Shown here one piece after another: positions 26,278 to 41,443 of a stretch of 64,000 bases of DNA. Every line of letters starts with the position of its first letter. The first letter of the stretch is position 1. Position numbers and translations under genes: made by a program. Under the pieces are notes generated by a model. That model saw only the letters and a program-made list of their open reading frames with translations. It made no database searches and was not told the origin of the DNA. Origin of the DNA: an uncultured archaeon (GTDB lineage Archaea > Asgardarchaeota > Lokiarchaeia > Sigyniarchaeales > SOKP01); NCBI GenBank assembly GCA_964632315.1, contig CAZWEM010000008.1:32001-96000 (forward strand), read 5' to 3'.

Positions 26278-28854
26278 ATGTTGTTTTTATGTATTGAGAA
26301 TCTCATTCCTTTAGACGTACAAATTGAAGAAATATCGATAATTCCGAATCCACGCAATCTCAAATTTATTGAAGATGGATGTATAAAAATCAGTGCAAAC
26401 TCTTCAATATCTCACAATTTGCCTTTCAACTCGGTTTATTTAATCGATAATTTAATGGAACACTTACTTAATAGTGGATTAAATTCCAAAATACCAGTCA
26501 AAAATAATGATAGTTACGATTATGATAAACTTCTAAAACTCTGTGAGATTAATTTTCCGAATAAATTTGCTGAAATAAAGAATCAAGAACTATTCAAGAC
26601 ACAAGGTTATATCCTCGCGATATCAGATAATAATATTAACATAATTGGAGATACTTCCCAAGGTATTTTTTATGGAATTCAAAGTTTATTACAAATTTTT
26701 GATTCTTACAACGATCACCTTATTTGCAATCATTTAGTTATAATTGATTATCCTCTACTCAAAATTCGGGGGATTTCAGATGATATTTCTCGAGGACAAG
26801 CACCCACGTTAGAAAATCTAAAGAAGTTCATGACTATTTTAAGTCATTATAAAATTAATCAATACTATTTAGTCTACATGCAAGACATGTATCAATTTAA
26901 AAATCATAGAGAGATTTGGGAGAGAAGAGGTGCTTATTCAAAAGAAGAATTGATAAGTTTAGTAGAACATGCAAGAAAATGTTTTATAGAGATCATACCA
27001 ATTTTTCAAACAGTTGGACATTGGGATAACATACTCTTCCATAAAACCTATTGGAAATACGGTGAATTTCCAGGATCTAATAGTTTAAATTTAGCAAACG
27101 AAGAAATTTATCAATTATTAGAGGAAATGATTGAAGAATTGAGTGAAGTGTTTGAATCTAAGTATTTTCACATTGCAGCTGATGAAAGTTGGGATGTTGG
27201 AAGGGGAAAGTCAAAAAATTATATCCAAAAAGTAGGTATTGAACAAGCATATCTCACACATTACAAAAAAGTTTATGATATTGTTAAAAAACATGGTTTT
27301 GAAAAAGTGATCATTTATCATGATATTTTGTATAAGCATGAATTTGTTTTGAAAAACCTACCAAAAGATATAATCGTAATGTATTGGAAATATAACCTAA
27401 AAGAAAGTCATCCCATAATTGATTTACTAAACACCCATGATTTCCCGATTCTCGTTTCTCCTTCAATTTGGGATTATAATCGGATCTTCCCTAACATTTC
27501 TAATTTTGAAAAGAATGTTAGTAATATTGCTGCATATGGGTATGCAAGAAATATCGAAGGGATAGTTACTTCTAGTTGGGGCGATTACAAGAACAAAGAA
27601 TTAAGAGAAAATCGAATTTTTGGTTTTATATATTCCGCTGAGGTTGCTTGGAACTCTAGGACTCCCGTGAATCGCTTGCAATTTTGGAAATCAGTTTTTA
27701 ATGAGCTTTTTGGTACTAAAGAGATTCTCAAAATATTTAATAAAATCAGAGAAATCCAAGATAAGAAAAAATTACGCGTAAGACCGACTTTTTATTATAA
27801 TCATTTTTTCAGTCATCCATATCGGAAAAACACCAAGGGCTTCAGACGGAGTTTAAGAACGAGCCAATTTAGCAAATTAATTAAAGAACTAGGGGAAATG
27901 ATTAATACTTATAATAGTTTGTTAAAAAATGAAGATAAAAATCATCAGTTGCTACGATCACTTATTTTCGTTCTCCAACACATGCAATTTTACTGTTCTA
28001 AAAGGATTAATTCTAAGAAACTGGTAAACTTTAATATAAAAAGAACCAATAAAACGATTCTTAATATCATTATTAAAGAAATTGAAAACTTAAAAGGCCA
28101 GTTGGAAAATCTCTTGCTTGATTATGAAAAATTATGGCTTAAAATGGCAAAACCAGATGGATTTAGATCAATAAAACAGCAATACCTTTGGTTGATTCAA
28201 TTTTATAATGATAAGATACATGAGTTAAGTGAAAGAAAGAAATGGGAGGATCCAAACATACAAAGTGAATCAATTTATCTAAAAGATAAAGAGAGCGATT
28301 CTGTTCATACAACTTCATTCAAAAAAGTCATACTGCTAAAGGATAAAGTTCAAGAAGCCCACATTCAAGTCATTGCAGGTACTTATTGTGAAATTTATAT
28401 TAATGGATCTTTCATAGGATTTGGGATCACGAGACATACTTTAAATTATGTAATTCAAGACAACAATATTAAAATTTTTGATATTACAATCAATTTAAAG
28501 AAAGGAGAAAATACCATAATCCTTAAAAATACTGATTATATTGGAGGAATGGGAATAGTAAACTTATACGGAGAAATTAGATTAGAATCAGACGAAATAA
28601 TTCAACTTAAAACGGATAAAAGCTGGCTTGGCTCAAAAGAGGACCTCGGAGAATGGAAGAAAGTAAAAAGTTTCGGGAGACCTCCAAAACTAACGGGCGG
28701 ACTCAATTATCCTGATTTCAATAAAGGATTACATTCGAAAGAAAATGAGTATGTAGCATCATTCAATACTATCTTTAGTAAAACATCCCCAAAAATACGT
28801 TGGTTAATAAAGATCTTAGTAAAAATTTTCAACCGATATGATATTTTAGAATAA
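26278..28854 (+). CDS. Glycoside hydrolase family 20 (beta-N-acetylhexosaminidase-like) with C-terminal beta-sandwich
   Basis: [33 protein letters not shown] catalytic pair. Confidence 0.88.
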
Positions 28855-28954: not shown

Positions 28955-29452
28955 TTAAGTCCTTTCCAGACCACATGATGTGCAAAAATTTCCTTCCATG
29001 GGTGCTCCACAAGAAGTACAAAATTTTGATTGATCTTGTGTAGCAACAGGTTTGGGCGCAGAAACTGTAGTTTGGGGCACTTCTTGAGAATATTTTTTAT
29101 TTGATTTTGCAATGCTGAACATGCATATCCCAAAGATAAGTACTAAGACCCCTGCTATTAACAAGTAAAGTCCCACTCCCGCATCAAGAGAGAGAACACC
29201 TCCTACTATAAGGAAGATTCCAATTATAAGCGCAATAATACCGCCTCTCCTTGTTTTTCCCGCACTCTCTCCAGCTTTCTTCCTCGCAGTTGCTACAGCG
29301 CTCGCTACAATTTCATCTTGTTTCGCAGCAACATCAGCAGTAATTTTTTCAAAATCAATGCTGTCAATTATTGCCCTTTCGTCTGCGGTTAATCCATCCT
29401 CATCCCTTTCGATTCCGTCAGAATATTTTTTTTTCTTAGACAAATTTATCAA
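28955..29452 (-). CDS. Two-TM membrane protein with C-terminal double zinc ribbon
   Basis: Two hydrophobic helices; KFCTSCGAPMEGNFCTSCG. Confidence 0.85.
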   Translation of the reverse strand: MINLSKKKKYSDGIERDEDGLTADERAIIDSIDFEKITADVAAKQDEIVASAVATARKKAGESAGKTRRGGIIALIIGIFLIVGGVLSLDAGVGLYLLIAGVLVLIFGICMFSIAKSNKKYSQEVPQTTVSAPKPVATQDQSKFCTSCGAPMEGNFCTSCGLERT

Positions 29453-29632
29453 CCCTCTATTAATTGTGGATCATATGGTTAATTATTATTACTTAGTTGA
29501 ATTTCATTATAAATCTATCTTTTGGTAATCAAAATCAGAAGATTATAAGTTAAAAATGTCATGATTTCTAAATTAAATTGTATCAAAATACGTAATTTGG
29601 TAATATTGAAAAAAAAAATTGAATAAGTAAAA

Positions 29633-30592
29633 TTAGAAATTTGAGTAGATCATGAATTTATTATCAGATCCGATTGAGTAAATTTCGAATTTACTCCCCT
29701 TCTTGGTTTCACAGAACATTTGGATCATTGGAAACAAATAAATCTGAGAGGTAATTTGAGTATCTTTATCTTTCTCATGGGATTTATAATCGCTACCTGC
29801 TGATGAGATAGTCTTTTTAATGTTTTTATTCCAATATCCTAATGAGGGTTCTGCTTTCGATTCCAATGTTTTAAAGTCAGAAAATTTTATTCCCTCCACT
29901 TCCTCGATCATTTTATGTAAATCATCACCCATTTCCTTTTCATATTTGGTTTGGGCACTGCTATGTAAGACGGGAACACCAGTAACTACTGTTTTGAATG
30001 GTACGGGGAGAATTTGATATTTATAGAGAGTTTTGTGACCATCGCATTCCTTGCAATGTTCTCTCCTTGTACCCGTCCCATAACAAGTTCCACAAGGATA
30101 AGAAAAGGCTTTCTTTTCCTTTTTTTGATCTTCTCCAACAAAAACCGTTATGGTCTCCTCGATTTTCCCGCTTCCTCCACATGTCTTACACTTGTCCTCA
30201 AGATATCCCTTTCCGTTACACTTCTTGCAAGTTATCCCTTGTATGGTATCATGCATCGGTACCAACTCATCCCCTTTCCAATTATCTTTATTCACTTGGC
30301 CTGCTCCTTTAAACGAATAAAAATATTCACGACTGATCCTTGGAGCTGGGAGCATTTTTTCTTCCTTACCTTGGGCTGCAGGTCCTAATGATTTTTTAAC
30401 GGCAAAGTAAATTGCTGCTTCTTTCATGGTGTCTTTTACATATTCAGCCGCACTAATAACATCTAAAGAAAAAACTGCACCCTTAGTCCCAAACTGTTTC
30501 TCCATCTTTTTCTTATCTTTCCTCATGGCACTTTGCTTCCACTTTTCAAATATGTCATCAAGATTTGGAGTTTTAATTTTCACATCTGGCAT
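29633..30592 (-). CDS. DnaJ-type zinc-finger protein lacking a J-domain (SSUH2-like)
   Basis: CKKCNGKG, CKTCGGSG, CGTCYGTG, CKECDG repeats; no HPD J-domain motif. Confidence 0.75.
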   Translation of the reverse strand: MPDVKIKTPNLDDIFEKWKQSAMRKDKKKMEKQFGTKGAVFSLDVISAAEYVKDTMKEAAIYFAVKKSLGPAAQGKEEKMLPAPRISREYFYSFKGAGQVNKDNWKGDELVPMHDTIQGITCKKCNGKGYLEDKCKTCGGSGKIEETITVFVGEDQKKEKKAFSYPCGTCYGTGTRREHCKECDGHKTLYKYQILPVPFKTVVTGVPVLHSSAQTKYEKEMGDDLHKMIEEVEGIKFSDFKTLESKAEPSLGYWNKNIKKTISSAGSDYKSHEKDKDTQITSQIYLFPMIQMFCETKKGSKFEIYSIGSDNKFMIYSNF

Positions 30593-30706
30593 TAGTTTTC
30601 ACTCATTGAATTTTGATTTCGAATACTAAATAGTTAAATTAGATTAATTTATAATGTTATATAACAATATACAGATTTTAATTACTCTCCTATTTATTAT
30701 ACACTC

Positions 30707-31825: not shown

Positions 31826-33061
31826 TTGAGGAAAAACTATATTAAAGAAATTCCCCAAATAGGTTTTAACACTAAAAAATTTTTTAAAAGTGTGTTTAAT
31901 TTGTATCCAAAGACAAAATCGATTATATTTATTTTAGGGTTATTTATTATTTTGGTAATGATTTCTACTATTCCTTCTATAAACAATATAAGCAATGAAA
32001 ACATGAATTCAAGTAATATTAATTACTTTTCATCTGAGAGACAGAATTTAGCCCTCTCAGAAACCTCGGAAAAAGTACACATTGATGGGAACCTTGGTTG
32101 GGTTTCCTATAAAGCTGCGGGGAATTGTACTGGGAGTGGTACTTATTCTGATCCCTACATTATAAAAGATTTGAAGATAGATGGTGAAGGTTCGGGAAGT
32201 TGCATCTTGATTGAAAATTCCAATGTATACTTTAAAATTGAAGGTTGTATTGTTTATAATTCAGGAACAAATTGGGATGACGCAGGAATCAAATTATATC
32301 AAACAACTAATGGGGCTATCATTAATAACAATTGCTCACATAATTGCAACGGCATACTTTTAAATACAGATTGTGTTAATAACACAATTCAAGGAAATTT
32401 GATAAACAGTGGTACTTGGTTAGCTGGCATTCTACTACCGTTAGTTGGTATACAATTAGTGAACTATTGCGTAAATAATACAATCTTAGGAAATTCTATT
32501 TTGAATAATTATAATTATATAGGGATAAGTTTGGATCTTTGTGACAACAATTCTATTTTAGAAAATCATGTAAACAACAATCAGAATGGAATTTGGCTAT
32601 CGGATGGAATGAATTCATTAATATTAGGAAACCAAATTGTTAATAACAGCTATAACGGGATTTATATAAAAGATGGTAACAATAACACAATATCAAGAAA
32701 CATCGTAAAAAGTAATAACTATAGGGGAATATTTTTAGATACGACAAATGGGAGTATTGTTTTTTTAAATTGCCTTATTAAAAATGCTCTAAACGCTTAT
32801 GATGATGGAATAAATAACCAATGGCATAATGGGGCTAAGGGGAATTATTGGGGAGACTATGCTGGTTCGGACGATAATGGTGATGGAATTGGGGATGTTC
32901 CCTACTTAATTTCTAGAGGAAATCAAGACAATTTTCCCTTGATGAACTGTCCCCTTCTTTCTCAAAAAGGTGGTATAATTCAAGGATATGATCTATTCCT
33001 TCTACTTGGAATTCTAGCAGTCGTTTCAATCTTTATTTGCAAAAAGTTGAAAAAATCTTAA
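31826..33061 (+). CDS. Secreted right-handed beta-helix (NosD-like) surface protein with Loki-CTERM-like tail
   Basis: N-terminal TM; GSGTYSDPYII; Asn-ladder repeats; GNYWGDY..DNGDGIGDVPY; IQGYDLFLLLGILAVVSIFICKKLKKS. Confidence 0.88.
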   Translation: MRKNYIKEIPQIGFNTKKFFKSVFNLYPKTKSIIFILGLFIILVMISTIPSINNISNENMNSSNINYFSSERQNLALSETSEKVHIDGNLGWVSYKAAGNCTGSGTYSDPYIIKDLKIDGEGSGSCILIENSNVYFKIEGCIVYNSGTNWDDAGIKLYQTTNGAIINNNCSHNCNGILLNTDCVNNTIQGNLINSGTWLAGILLPLVGIQLVNYCVNNTILGNSILNNYNYIGISLDLCDNNSILENHVNNNQNGIWLSDGMNSLILGNQIVNNSYNGIYIKDGNNNTISRNIVKSNNYRGIFLDTTNGSIVFLNCLIKNALNAYDDGINNQWHNGAKGNYWGDYAGSDDNGDGIGDVPYLISRGNQDNFPLMNCPLLSQKGGIIQGYDLFLLLGILAVVSIFICKKLKKS

Positions 33062-36525: not shown

Positions 36526-39201
36526 ATGGACATAGTTTTGAGCGTCATTTCAAGAAATTTTTTCATTGTAATTAATCGAAATCCTTTCGATTCAAAGGAA
36601 TTGAATTTTGATGTAAATTTCTTTTATCTCAGATCATTTAAAGAAGATACGTTCAAATTTTCTTACGTTAATAAACCTTTTTTCAAGGGTAATGTCATTT
36701 TTGGATTAGATTTTAAGAATAAGATGCGTCCATTGTCCTTTTTGAAGACCACGGGGGATGATTCAACCAAAGCAATTGATCCTCGTTTATTCAAGAAGTT
36801 CATTCTAAACGAAAGAAATAAGTTCATAGCCTTTTCAAATCAGACAGATATGAATAAGTTTGACCCTGTGAGGATCATGTTGGAGAATTTTCATTATGAC
36901 AATCGAAAGGTAATTGAGCTAACACTCTGTCAATCATGTTTAGAAAAACGAATTTTTAAAATCTTAAACAAAAAACAACAAATAAAATCATATAATAAAA
37001 GAATTATTTGCTCCGATTGTGCTTTAGATTTGATCTTGAAAGAAGCAAGGCAAAAGGGGCTTCTTGGTGAGAAAAAGATAAATCCCAAGTTGAAGAATTT
37101 CTTTAAGCACATGCTTCTCAAGTTTCGAGACGTATTGAAAGTGTTGAATACTTTTAAAGTTAGTTTCGATCCAATTAAAAATTCAGACTTAACGTTATAT
37201 GATATCGAACAAAACCCTCCAATAAGTAAAAAATATTTAAATTTGCATGTAGAAGACTTGGATCTTGAACCTAAATTTAGAGATCTTCTAAAAGAGCAAA
37301 AGATTAATACTTTACTTCCCATTCAAGCATTATCAATTGATAGGGGATTAATAAGCGAATATAATAGTCAGCTAATCATGGCCCCTACTTCGGCGGGAAA
37401 AACATTAGTCGGGGAAATAGCAGGTGTGACAAGAATTTTAAGAGATAACTTAAAAATGCTTTATTTAGTGCCAATCGTCGCGTTAGCAAACGTGAGAACT
37501 GAGGAATTTACGAAAAAATATGAAAATCTTAATCTAAAGATTGTTAAGAAGATAGGAGAATCAATTTTAGATAAAAATGAAGAAGACAATTTAGACGAAT
37601 TATATGACGCGAATATCATCATTGCGACGTATGAAGCGATTGATTATATCATACGTGGTGGTAATAAAGGAAAGTTAGGACCAATTGGGACTATCGTGAT
37701 CGACGAGATACAAACGCTTATTGATGTAGAGAGAGGATTTATTTTGGATGGATTAATTGCTCGTTTGAAATATTTATATCCAAAAGCTCAGTTCTTGTAT
37801 TTAAGTGCAACCATTGGGGCACCAGATGTCCTTGCTAAAAAATTAGATTGCGCTTTAATAAGATATAATAATCGACCTGTGCCTATTGAGAGGCATCTTA
37901 TATTATGTCTAAATGAAACAATAAAAAATAGATATATAATCTCTCTCGTGAAAAATGCATTTTCAAGTGTATCTAAATTTCAATATAAAGGACAGAGCAT
38001 CATTTTCACAAATACTAGAAAAAAGTGTGAAAATCTTGCGGAATATTTATCGAGGAGACAGATTCGGGCACGTCCATATCATTCTGGATTAACTCATGAT
38101 GAAAGAAAGGAAATTGAGATTGATTTTAAAAATCAACGAATCTCAGCAGTAGTTGCAACGGCTGCCTTAGCCGCAGGAGTTGATTTTCCGGCAAAACAAG
38201 TCATTTTCGAGTCATTAGGCATGGGAATTAAGATTTTGACAGTTGCGGAGTTTGAACAGATGCTTGGGAGAGCAGGAAGGTTAAAAAAGCATGAAAAAGG
38301 TTTTGCTTATCTTCTTGTAGAACCGGGAAAAATTTATAATCCCAAAATGAAAATTACTGAAGAAAACATTGCGATATCATTATTAAACGGAAAAATCAAG
38401 GATTTTCAGTTGGATCCGAATGGTGATCGCTCACTCACGGAATTATTGGCATTCATTTCTGCTTTTGAAGAAGGAATAGAAAAGAAAGATATCAATCACT
38501 TTTATAATTCTCTAATTAATGGTGAATACGAGCTTGAATCTTTTTTAAAGCAATTACTACAATTTAATTTGATAAAAAATGAGAATTATAAATTAATACC
38601 AACTCGTTTAGGAACTGCTATCTCTAAATCTTTTCTTACAGTCGATCAGGGTTTAGAAATTGCCAACCGATTAGAGAACGAAGATAATGCGGTGTATAGC
38701 ATCGTGCTTGAATTAAATCCTTTGAAAAATGTTTATTTATCAAAAAAAGTAGTTGCAGATTTATCAAAAAATGTAAACATGAAGTATTTCTCGAACAATT
38801 TTTTCAGTGCTAGCACATTAAATTTAATGGACGCAGAATACGTAAAAAAACGGAAAAAATTTTCTCAAGATTTTATAGATTTGATTATCAAATGGACGAC
38901 TGATATTTTTAATTGCACTTGTAAAGATAATCCATATTGCGATTGTGGGAGGATAAATTTAGAAAAAATGATTTTAAGACTGAGAACTGAAGAGAATCTC
39001 TCTGTAGAAGCCATCAGTTCGTACTTGCTTGAAGTTTATAACATCATGGTCTTCAAAGGAGATCTTATCGATTATTTAGAGAGTCTAATATATTCCTTGG
39101 AAAGTATTTTGAATATTGCCAAAGGTTTAGATAAAATTAACCCTCAAAATAATACACAATTAAGTGACATTCCAAATTTGATCACAAAAATTAAGTACTA
39201 A
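36526..39201 (+). CDS. Archaeal Ski2-like DEAD/DEAH helicase (ASH-Ski2/DUF5814 type)
   Basis: APTSAGKT, DEIQ, LSAT, YHSGL, QMLGRAGR; N-terminal CxxC pair and C-terminal CTCKDNPYCDCG. Confidence 0.88.
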   Translation: MDIVLSVISRNFFIVINRNPFDSKELNFDVNFFYLRSFKEDTFKFSYVNKPFFKGNVIFGLDFKNKMRPLSFLKTTGDDSTKAIDPRLFKKFILNERNKFIAFSNQTDMNKFDPVRIMLENFHYDNRKVIELTLCQSCLEKRIFKILNKKQQIKSYNKRIICSDCALDLILKEARQKGLLGEKKINPKLKNFFKHMLLKFRDVLKVLNTFKVSFDPIKNSDLTLYDIEQNPPISKKYLNLHVEDLDLEPKFRDLLKEQKINTLLPIQALSIDRGLISEYNSQLIMAPTSAGKTLVGEIAGVTRILRDNLKMLYLVPIVALANVRTEEFTKKYENLNLKIVKKIGESILDKNEEDNLDELYDANIIIATYEAIDYIIRGGNKGKLGPIGTIVIDEIQTLIDVERGFILDGLIARLKYLYPKAQFLYLSATIGAPDVLAKKLDCALIRYNNRPVPIERHLILCLNETIKNRYIISLVKNAFSSVSKFQYKGQSIIFTNTRKKCENLAEYLSRRQIRARPYHSGLTHDERKEIEIDFKNQRISAVVATAALAAGVDFPAKQVIFESLGMGIKILTVAEFEQMLGRAGRLKKHEKGFAYLLVEPGKIYNPKMKITEENIAISLLNGKIKDFQLDPNGDRSLTELLAFISAFEEGIEKKDINHFYNSLINGEYELESFLKQLLQFNLIKNENYKLIPTRLGTAISKSFLTVDQGLEIANRLENEDNAVYSIVLELNPLKNVYLSKKVVADLSKNVNMKYFSNNFFSASTLNLMDAEYVKKRKKFSQDFIDLIIKWTTDIFNCTCKDNPYCDCGRINLEKMILRLRTEENLSVEAISSYLLEVYNIMVFKGDLIDYLESLIYSLESILNIAKGLDKINPQNNTQLSDIPNLITKIKY

Positions 39202-40243: not shown

Positions 40244-41443
40244 TTATTTTGTGAAAATTTCAATGATATCGTTATCTTTAATATCGTAATCTAAACCAAC
40301 CTTTTTACGTTTATGACGAACACTTTTCCGTATCACAACAGCATAATCAAATTTTTCATAAAAACTTCTATGAATCCGTATCGCAACATCTCTTACTTTT
40401 ACTCCCGTATCCATTATCAGTGGCTTTTGAGCCACTTCACCTTTATGTGAGGTATATACTTTAATTTTGTTTAAAAATTTCAGTATAATTTTCCCAAACT
40501 CAGATTCAGGAGTTAGTTCCTCTTTGCTAACACTACTCCCTAAAATCAAGGAAAATTTTGAAGAATATCTTGCTTTAAGTTCTTGAAATGTATCTTCTGT
40601 ATTTGGAAGATCTCCTTTGGTTCCTATGATCGCCGCTTTTTTGTAGACTACAGAAGGATTCATGGCATCAACAATTTGATCTAAAGTTACTCTTCCAAAT
40701 ATCTTCACTATTGCATTCCTAATTCCTCCTTCATAGATTATCTCTCGAATTCTTTCTGTCAATTCTAATAAATCTTTATTTTGCTTTGCCTCTTTAGTTA
40801 AATAAAAAACTTGGATTTTATTAGAGCCAGTTTTTTCAATAGTAATTGGTGGAGGAGGTACGTTAATTCTTATATTGGATTCTAAAAATTCATGCATTAG
40901 TAAAGAGATTTGCTGGTCGAAGTTTCTTGAGAGGTCCACACATATTAAGATTAAGTCGCAGGATCTTATTTGAGATAAAATTTCTTTCCCATTAGCTACT
41001 CCTGAGGAAGCTCCTTTCATGATTGAGGGCATATCAACAATTTGGAATCTAATATTATCCTCTTCATAAATCCCTATTTCAGGAATGGAAGTAAATCTAC
41101 CAATTTTTTCTTTAGCCGCACCCGTGAGTAGGTTCAGTAATGAAGTTTTTCCAACTCCTGGGACGTGGTAATCGCTTACCAAAATCATTTGAATGCCTTC
41201 TTTCTTTATTGAAAATGGACTTACTTGCTTTCCAATTGATTTTTGCCATTCTTTTTTATCTTCTCTCTCTCTTTTTAATTTAGCTAGCTTAGAGCGATTT
41301 AACGCAACAATTTTTTCAGTTGCTTTATGTTTCGGAACTAATGAAATGAATTCTTCTAATTGCTGGATTTTCTCATCTAATGAGGATGCATCAAGATATC
41401 TTTGATATGCTGCTTCAGCTTCTGGACCGATGTTTGAACTCAT
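40244..41443 (-). CDS. DRG/OBG-family GTPase with TGS domain (degenerate G motifs)
   Basis: PKHKATEK, PGVGKTSLL, FQIVDMPS, TKGD, IKVYT, VAIRIH, KVGLDY.IKDNDIIEI. Confidence 0.88.
   Translation of the reverse strand: MSSNIGPEAEAAYQRYLDASSLDEKIQQLEEFISLVPKHKATEKIVALNRSKLAKLKREREDKKEWQKSIGKQVSPFSIKKEGIQMILVSDYHVPGVGKTSLLNLLTGAAKEKIGRFTSIPEIGIYEEDNIRFQIVDMPSIMKGASSGVANGKEILSQIRSCDLILICVDLSRNFDQQISLLMHEFLESNIRINVPPPPITIEKTGSNKIQVFYLTKEAKQNKDLLELTERIREIIYEGGIRNAIVKIFGRVTLDQIVDAMNPSVVYKKAAIIGTKGDLPNTEDTFQELKARYSSKFSLILGSSVSKEELTPESEFGKIILKFLNKIKVYTSHKGEVAQKPLIMDTGVKVRDVAIRIHRSFYEKFDYAVVIRKSVRHKRKKVGLDYDIKDNDIIEIFTK

Follow-up and report, generated by a model that had tools for sequence, protein, structure and literature searches.

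In type I DnaJ/Hsp40 proteins, CxxCxGxG repeats form a hairpin that is inserted into a beta-rich domain, alongside a J domain, a G/F region and DnaJ_C. Zinc-finger modules of this kind also operate without recruiting Hsp70, as in the Rubisco assembly factor BSD2 and in anti-TRAP, which consist of the finger alone (~50–140 amino acids). Human SSUH2 (synonyms C3orf32 and fls485; PMC2838759, PMC7818184) likewise lacks a J domain; it measures ~39 kDa, contains at least four CXXCXGXG repeats as well as truncated ones, and has no established function (PMC2838759), while a missense variant of SSUH2 has been linked to dentin dysplasia type I (PMC7818184). In the literature searched, nothing was found that links SSUH2 or CXXCXGXG repeats to archaea, including Asgard archaea. 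Here we describe P0001, a J-less four-repeat protein encoded in a 64,000-nucleotide stretch of DNA (the window; positions 32,001–96,000, forward strand, of contig CAZWEM010000008.1, assembly GCA_964632315.1) from an uncultured archaeon of the Lokiarchaeia.

Sequence comparisons place P0001 in an uncharacterised family that appears to be known only from Asgard archaea. We lean towards the overall explanation that P0001 is a core carrying a zinc rod, built like SSUH2, which would hold a partner or client protein without the help of Hsp70.

The zinc finger and its surrounding core

P0001 is encoded on the minus strand by a single open reading frame of 319 codons, with its ATG start at 30592 and a TAA stop at 29633–29635, and the gene is present in a single copy in its own genome. 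The coding sequence and the parts of the protein are as follows.

29633..30592, minus strand: complete coding sequence of the 319-amino-acid protein P0001, stop codon included; assigned from the intact open reading frame, orthologues and the ratio of nonsynonymous to synonymous substitution rates (dN/dS)
30230..30592, minus strand: N-terminal part (residues 1–121), predicted half of an alpha/beta core, with two helices, a long beta-hairpin and strands leading into the finger; from the AlphaFold2 model and alignments A1/A4, no Pfam match
30032..30229, minus strand: DnaJ-type CR zinc finger (residues 122–187) with four CxxCxGxG-type repeats; from Pfam and NCBIfam, PDB matches and alignment
30095..30172, minus strand: beta-hairpin between repeats 2 and 3 (residues 141–166), whose return strand is rich in Lys, forming the distal tip of the predicted zinc rod; from the model and alignment
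29636..30031, minus strand: C-terminal part (residues 188–319), predicted other half of the core, with post-finger strands, three helices and a terminal three-stranded sheet; no Pfam match

A sequence-only reading of the window had proposed a four-repeat, J-less protein at 29633–30592, and these boundaries proved exact. The archaeal strings that it quoted are all present in P0001: LVPMHDTIQGITCKKCNGKG (residues 110–129), CKECDGHKTLYKYQILPVPFK (180–200), QIYLFPMIQM (283–292) and FEIYSIGSDNKF (302–313). It had also called the protein overlooked. P0001 is indeed under-annotated; its J-less DnaJ-type finger lies within a larger fold that has no other assignment, in a protein conserved among Asgard archaea. 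The further expectation that such proteins would be misnamed as DnaJ did not hold, as no source uses that name; the names in use are ‘hypothetical protein’, ‘zinc finger-like domain-containing protein’ and, once, ‘RecJ-like exonuclease’.

The four repeats read C122-KKC-NGKG, C135-KTC-GGSG, C167-GTC-YGTG and C180-KEC-DGHK, the fourth (CKECDGHK) being without the final Gly. In an alignment of 38 family members (A1), each of the eight finger Cys is either invariant or shared by at least 90% of the sequences, and the repeats are therefore not due to chance. The Pfam model of the DnaJ central CR domain, PF00684, matches residues 122–187 of P0001 below its cut-off (E = 8.7e-6; 26.4 bits against 32.7) and is matched by all 38 family members, with a best E value of 7e-13. 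Neither Pfam nor NCBIfam returned a J domain (PF00226) or DnaJ_C (PF01556) for P0001, the HPD motif is absent from its sequence, and NCBIfam DnaJ models match the finger only, at 18–24 bits versus cut-offs of 338–556. Among PDB sequences, the finger matched DnaJ-type entries including 1exk, 1nlt and 6jzb, as well as the J-less CR-finger factors BSD2 (6ekb/9ci1) and anti-TRAP (3lcz). Taking the pairing of repeats in the solved DnaJ CR domain (1exk) as a template, we infer two Cys4 zinc sites in the finger, one predicted to be formed by repeats 1 and 4 and the other by repeats 2 and 3.

AlphaFold2, supplied with A1, modelled P0001 with a mean predicted local distance difference test score (pLDDT) of 90.2 and a predicted template modelling score (pTM) of 0.76, with lower confidence only at the Cys knuckles. 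The modelled N-terminal part comprises helices 11–25 and 27–34, a long hairpin (52–82) and strands up to residue 121, and the C-terminal part strands 188–211, helices 218–274 and strands 284–317. The terminal three-stranded sheet bears the motif PIYLFP...KGKKF.IYSIGS, in which G308 is at least 90% conserved. The order of these elements suggests that the two parts fold into one compact alpha/beta core into which the finger is inserted. The finger hairpin strands (143–152 and 157–166) point away from this core in the model; in 37 relatives this hairpin spans 24–29 residues (median 25) and carries a median of 6 Lys and Arg residues.

P0001 resembles type I DnaJ/Hsp40 proteins in the insertion of its repeat hairpin into a beta-rich domain, but it differs in having no J domain, G/F region or DnaJ_C, in a longer hairpin between repeats 2 and 3 (32 residues Cys to Cys) and, according to fold searches, in a core that is unrelated to DnaJ CTD-I. 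It shares with BSD2 and anti-TRAP a zinc-finger module without Hsp70 recruitment; unlike in those proteins, its finger interrupts a core of ~250 residues. A BSD2-type finger-only protein was ruled out, given 319 amino acids of which ~250 non-finger residues are modelled as one core. The BSD2_CRD Pfam model was matched by 33 of the 38 family members and Anti-TRAP by 19, mostly below cut-off. Three further finger matches were set aside: those to DUF7895 and zf-AtTam37 are confined to the finger region, and PF27659, assigned to some orthologues, models the phage CHP02642 (TIGR02642) finger family rather than an SSUH2 family. P0001 itself scored 13 bits against the TIGR02642 cut-off of 101.4, over finger residues 115–148 only.

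Searches with the predicted fold brought no clear answer. Foldseek of the P0001 model against the PDB gave nothing at E ≤ 0.001, pore toxins (template modelling (TM) score 0.08) being artefacts of the long hairpin, and a BFVD fold search returned DnaJ fingers only. In the ESM-Atlas, archaeal clusters came first by shape (TM 0.61 and 0.55) and had a feature score of 0.98. The next shapes were bacterial multidomain proteins (Ser/Thr kinases, a peptidoglycan-binding protein and hypothetical proteins) at TM 0.29–0.39; the C-terminal part alone gave uninformative feature scores (≤0.83).

One match concerned the N-terminal part. With the finger masked, its profile matched residues 86–149 of yeast ESCRT-I Vps28 among PDB sequences (E = 0.001, 22.5 bits) over 30362–30556 of the window (P0001 residues 13–77), the four matches being constructs of one protein. 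The matched Vps28 stretch is partly linker after the ESCRT-I core helices, and the P0001 model has a beta strand there. This match is probably spurious.

P0001 has a computed mass of 36.2 kDa, an isoelectric point of 8.9 and nine Cys, eight of them within the finger. No membrane helix was found (maximum 19-residue Kyte–Doolittle mean, 1.08), and the protein is predicted to be soluble and cytoplasmic. Across 15 orthologues from the same taxonomic family the median dN/dS is ~0.11, with synonymous sites near or past saturation. The P0001 gene, which belongs to a Lokiarchaeia-type Asgard archaeon, is real and strongly conserved.

Distribution and repeat number of the Asgard family

Relatives of P0001 were collected in a word-seeded search (E ≤ 0.001) and, exhaustively, with phmmer against 1.84 billion cluster representatives (50% clustering). 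The word-seeded search returned 212 clusters; the best 120 are 67–93% identical to P0001 and nearly all 318–319 amino acids long, and the named sources among these 120 are Lokiarchaeota/Promethearchaeota-type metagenome-assembled genomes (MAGs). All source-named matches among the 84 found by phmmer are Asgard, spanning Promethearchaeota/Lokiarchaeota, Helarchaeota, Jordarchaeales, Njordarchaeia, Hermodarchaeota, Heimdallarchaeota and Hodarchaeales.

In a profile search of 400 Asgard genomes, matches were present in 116 of the 134 genomes of P0001’s own taxonomic family, all of four-repeat size, and in 22 of 26 genomes from other families of its class, where the eight-repeat form occurs. Outside the class, full-length matches (E < 1e-60) were found in 32 of 239 genomes; for three further families, matches of any kind were present in 3 of 89.

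P0001 aligns with this Asgard CR-type family from end to end, through the N-terminal part, finger, C-terminal part and terminal motif. The 38 sequences of A1 share a collinear N-terminal part of ~110–120 residues, the Cys repeats and a C-terminal part of ~130–140 residues that closes with PI..FP...L...T.KGKKF.I..IG. The family has no Pfam or NCBIfam model and is named ‘putative CR-type domain-containing protein’ in the ESM-Atlas.

Most lineages carry eight repeats in 335–365 amino acids, and four repeats are found in P0001 and a few others. In A1, the four repeats of P0001 line up with numbers 1, 4, 5 and 8 of the eight-repeat forms. Four-repeat forms do not make up one clade in a finger-masked tree, the well-supported branches of which force at least two independent shortenings. 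The four-repeat form is a shortened variant that arose more than once; most simply, an ancestral rod would have lost two of its four zinc sites symmetrically.

Several irregular family members were observed. In P0146 (365 amino acids), which was excluded from the tree, the finger and the stretch preceding it are duplicated in tandem within the protein, giving 13 CxxC motifs, after which the sequence breaks off; this may be a misassembly or a recent duplication. A genome of the same class holds two full-length eight-repeat copies in tandem (G128:C5:1338591-1340780), and several other genomes have 2–5 family matches; paralogues therefore exist outside P0001’s own family. Two orthologues from the same family (G226:C29:4866-5810 and G229:C18:18424-19368) have one in-frame stop each (TAG and TAA, respectively), reflecting either sequencing errors or recent pseudogenes. 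Finally, the 90%-identity cluster of P0141, a Helarchaeota-type relative, mixes 352-amino-acid members with proteins of 282–289 amino acids called ‘epoxyqueuosine reductase QueG’ by JGI, a naming that stems either from a truncated gene call, with Cys repeats read as Fe–S motifs, or from a clustering artefact.

Possible relationship to SSUH2 and to bacterial proteins

Like SSUH2, P0001 is J-less, of similar size and has at least four CXXCXGXG repeats in mid-protein; in contrast to the four plus truncated repeats of SSUH2, it has four, and it is only a putative member of that family. It is moderately likely that the whole P0001 module is a distant relative of an SSUH2-type module found in eukaryotes and in some bacterial, often membrane-tethered, proteins. 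The shared build would consist of a core–finger–core layout with a VP motif before the finger, G.x.Y/F-hydrophobic after it and I.L.P...G.D at the end. By analogy with DnaJ, the hairpin would be stiffened by its two Cys4 zinc sites and end in the conserved Lys-rich beta-hairpin. The four-repeat form of P0001’s own family is a shortened rod. Such a rigid rod with a basic tip might hold a specific partner or an unfolded client, a tentative comparison with BSD2 and anti-TRAP, and would act without Hsp70, since there is no J domain.

As a lead, the blocks of SSUH2 look collinear with those of the Asgard family, in similar order and spacing: VP ahead of the finger, C..C.G.K.L..(Y/F)..L following its final Cys, and I.L.P ... 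G.D near the C terminus. The only positive hint from the searches is that the 30 nearest ESM-Atlas shapes include a chordate-only cluster of 438 amino acids without a Pfam match (TM 0.39/0.31, 215 residues, root-mean-square deviation 6.6). This cluster fits expectations for SSUH2 and may represent it.

Bacterial clusters also feature among the look-alikes. An ESM-Atlas feature search returned a 333-amino-acid ‘CR-type domain’ cluster, mostly from Pseudomonadota, with a score of 0.94, and clusters from Myxococcota, Bacteroidota and Chloroflexota at 0.91–0.93. P0224 (547 amino acids; loci L049–L055), from Ignavibacteria and Melioribacter MAGs, resembles the Asgard family in having eight CxxCxGxG repeats, a post-finger G-Y-Q-Q-L-Y strand and a terminal hairpin in the same order, the hairpin (‘L-K-I-I-P ... 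N-S-I-F-I-V-G-K-D-K’) sitting at the position of the Asgard motif. Unlike P0001, it has a transmembrane helix (tail-anchored) and a 180-residue tail. In hhalign, the two families aligned at a probability of 99% across the finger and its flanks, which extended ~35 residues on the N-terminal and ~20 on the C-terminal side. The AlphaFold2 model of P0224, built with five close sequences, reached a pLDDT of 29. The P0224 family is rare: of the genomes sampled, 1 of 251 from its class and 3 of 301 from its phylum had a match, two of the latter through short finger-only matches.

Several results weigh against the SSUH2-type interpretation. The exhaustive phmmer search found no significant sequence similarity between P0001 and eukaryotic proteins, with no match at E ≤ 1e-3 known to be eukaryotic. 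Finger-masked N- and C-terminal profiles, taken across all family members, matched no Pfam family consistently, and the finger-masked C-terminal parts of the Asgard and P0224 families aligned in hhalign at E = 0.12–0.18, which is not significant. The TM score of 0.39 for the chordate cluster is under the usual line for the same fold, and the gene neighbourhood offered no operon partner. The sequence-only reading had proposed that similarity to SSUH2 extends outside the finger. With the finger masked, comparisons with Pfam and with the bacterial look-alike gave no significant non-Asgard match; the sole hhalign alignment of the masked C-terminal part is nonetheless collinear and places the bacterial terminal hairpin on the equivalent Asgard strands. 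Outside the finger, the sequence signal is too weak to prove common descent of the Asgard and P0224 families.

These same results lend themselves to a narrower explanation, in which a mobile CR module was inserted in an Asgard-specific scaffold and any resemblance to SSUH2 beyond the finger is chance or convergence. All significant non-Asgard matches fall within the finger or its immediate flanks, the masked profiles are without matches, and CR fingers turn up in many contexts that have nothing else in common (DnaJ, BSD2, anti-TRAP, EMB2737 and RecJ-like proteins). A profile of the finger plus C-terminal part, run against longer proteins so that the Asgard family was kept out, likewise gave only finger-level matches (an HNH/finger protein, the Ignavibacteria protein, RecJ-like proteins and DnaJ). 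However, the collinear order of the masked C-terminal alignment argues against this explanation, as do the ESM-Atlas shape matches, which align 150–215 residues and extend far beyond the 66-residue finger. We consider it rather unlikely.

A bolder alternative is that SSUH2 is a true eukaryotic signature protein that descended vertically from the Asgard family, including its members labelled Hodarchaeales, the bacterial look-alikes being unrelated or products of secondary transfer. Members labelled Hodarchaeales or Heimdallarchaeota do lie near the base of the midpoint-rooted tree, the chordate-only cluster is among the nearest shapes, and ‘SSUH2 homolog’ protein names occur in both animals and plants, which suggests that the gene is probably old in eukaryotes. 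Yet the exhaustive search gave no significant link to a eukaryotic protein, the family is patchy outside the Loki class, and a bacterial protein has the same motif order. We regard an archaeal source of SSUH2 in this family as improbable, and P0001 is probably not its direct archaeal ancestor. A specific Asgard–eukaryote link is not established, because the Ignavibacteria protein has its motifs in the same order and the nearest shapes, weak as they are, include bacterial clusters; P0001 is not currently evidence on eukaryogenesis. The emphasis of the sequence-only reading on a eukaryote-like protein is not supported by these comparisons, bacterial clusters being among the nearest by features and, weakly, by shape.

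The one weak non-Asgard match, P0204, was rejected. Used as a query it finds only itself, and it carries a match to PF27659 recorded as ‘faint’. Its 2.3-kb contig, with three closely spaced genes, looks prokaryotic or viral.

Gene neighbourhood and significance

The following features lie around the P0001 gene.

29609..29618, minus strand: run of 10 T, likely an archaeal terminator; read from the sequence, with its function inferred
30647..30654, minus strand: TTATAAAT, a TATA-like box lying ~58 nt ahead of the ATG; weakly assigned, the genome having ~31% G+C
36538–39198, plus strand: DEAD + Helicase_C + DUF5814 helicase of 890 amino acids, a conserved divergent neighbour (family loci including L034–L048)
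40250–41443, minus strand: DRG-type GTPase, after the helicase

The T run begins 15 nt past the stop codon and, together with the AT-rich TATA-like box upstream, suggests that the P0001 gene is probably monocistronic and transcribed alone. The sequence GAGTGA lies 9–14 nt upstream of the ATG. In one metatranscriptome, two 151-nt contigs of a strain 96–97% identical fall on the P0001 gene, a weak hint of expression for which DNA carry-over is possible; the source organism is present in salt-marsh metagenomes.

The helicase stands head-to-head with the P0001 orthologue in 14 of 16 family loci, followed by the DRG-type GTPase, and adjoins the eight-repeat form in 6 sister-family loci. In the window, an insert of ~6 kb (30.7–36.5 kb) encoding CMD-family, NosD-like beta-helix and radical SAM/SPASM proteins parts the two genes, and the linkage was not seen in other classes. 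We read it as conserved local synteny rather than an operon, and as a faint functional hint at most. That P0001 is a nucleic-acid-binding factor working with this helicase, its basic hairpin tip contacting RNA or DNA, would fit the recurrent linkage, the isoelectric point and the Lys-rich hairpin, but is very improbable given that the genes are divergent and not co-transcribed, that other genes separate them here, that other classes lack the linkage and that no nucleic-acid-binding fold was found.

Two further neighbours were noted. Downstream on the same strand (28955–29452, minus), a gene encodes a 165-amino-acid protein that has a hydrophobic stretch in its middle and a double zinc ribbon at its C terminus; none of the orthologues in the other 15 loci has a counterpart of this gene beside it. 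An 858-amino-acid glycoside hydrolase family 20-like protein is encoded at 26278–28854 (plus strand), and three other loci from the same genus have a homologue (cluster 8) next to the zinc-finger gene.

SSUH2 is widespread in animals and plants and of medical interest through its link to a human dentin disorder, and no biochemical function has been assigned to it (PMC7818184, PMC2838759). If the favoured relationship between P0001 and SSUH2-type proteins is true, this prokaryotic relative, being compact and very well conserved, would offer a tractable model of the core-plus-zinc-rod module, with a confident structure prediction and natural versions predicted to bind two and four zinc ions. Were the Asgard family in fact the source, SSUH2 would be an unrecognised eukaryotic signature protein whose function could be studied in cultured Lokiarchaeia. 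Asgard biology, for its part, gains one more highly conserved unnamed family.
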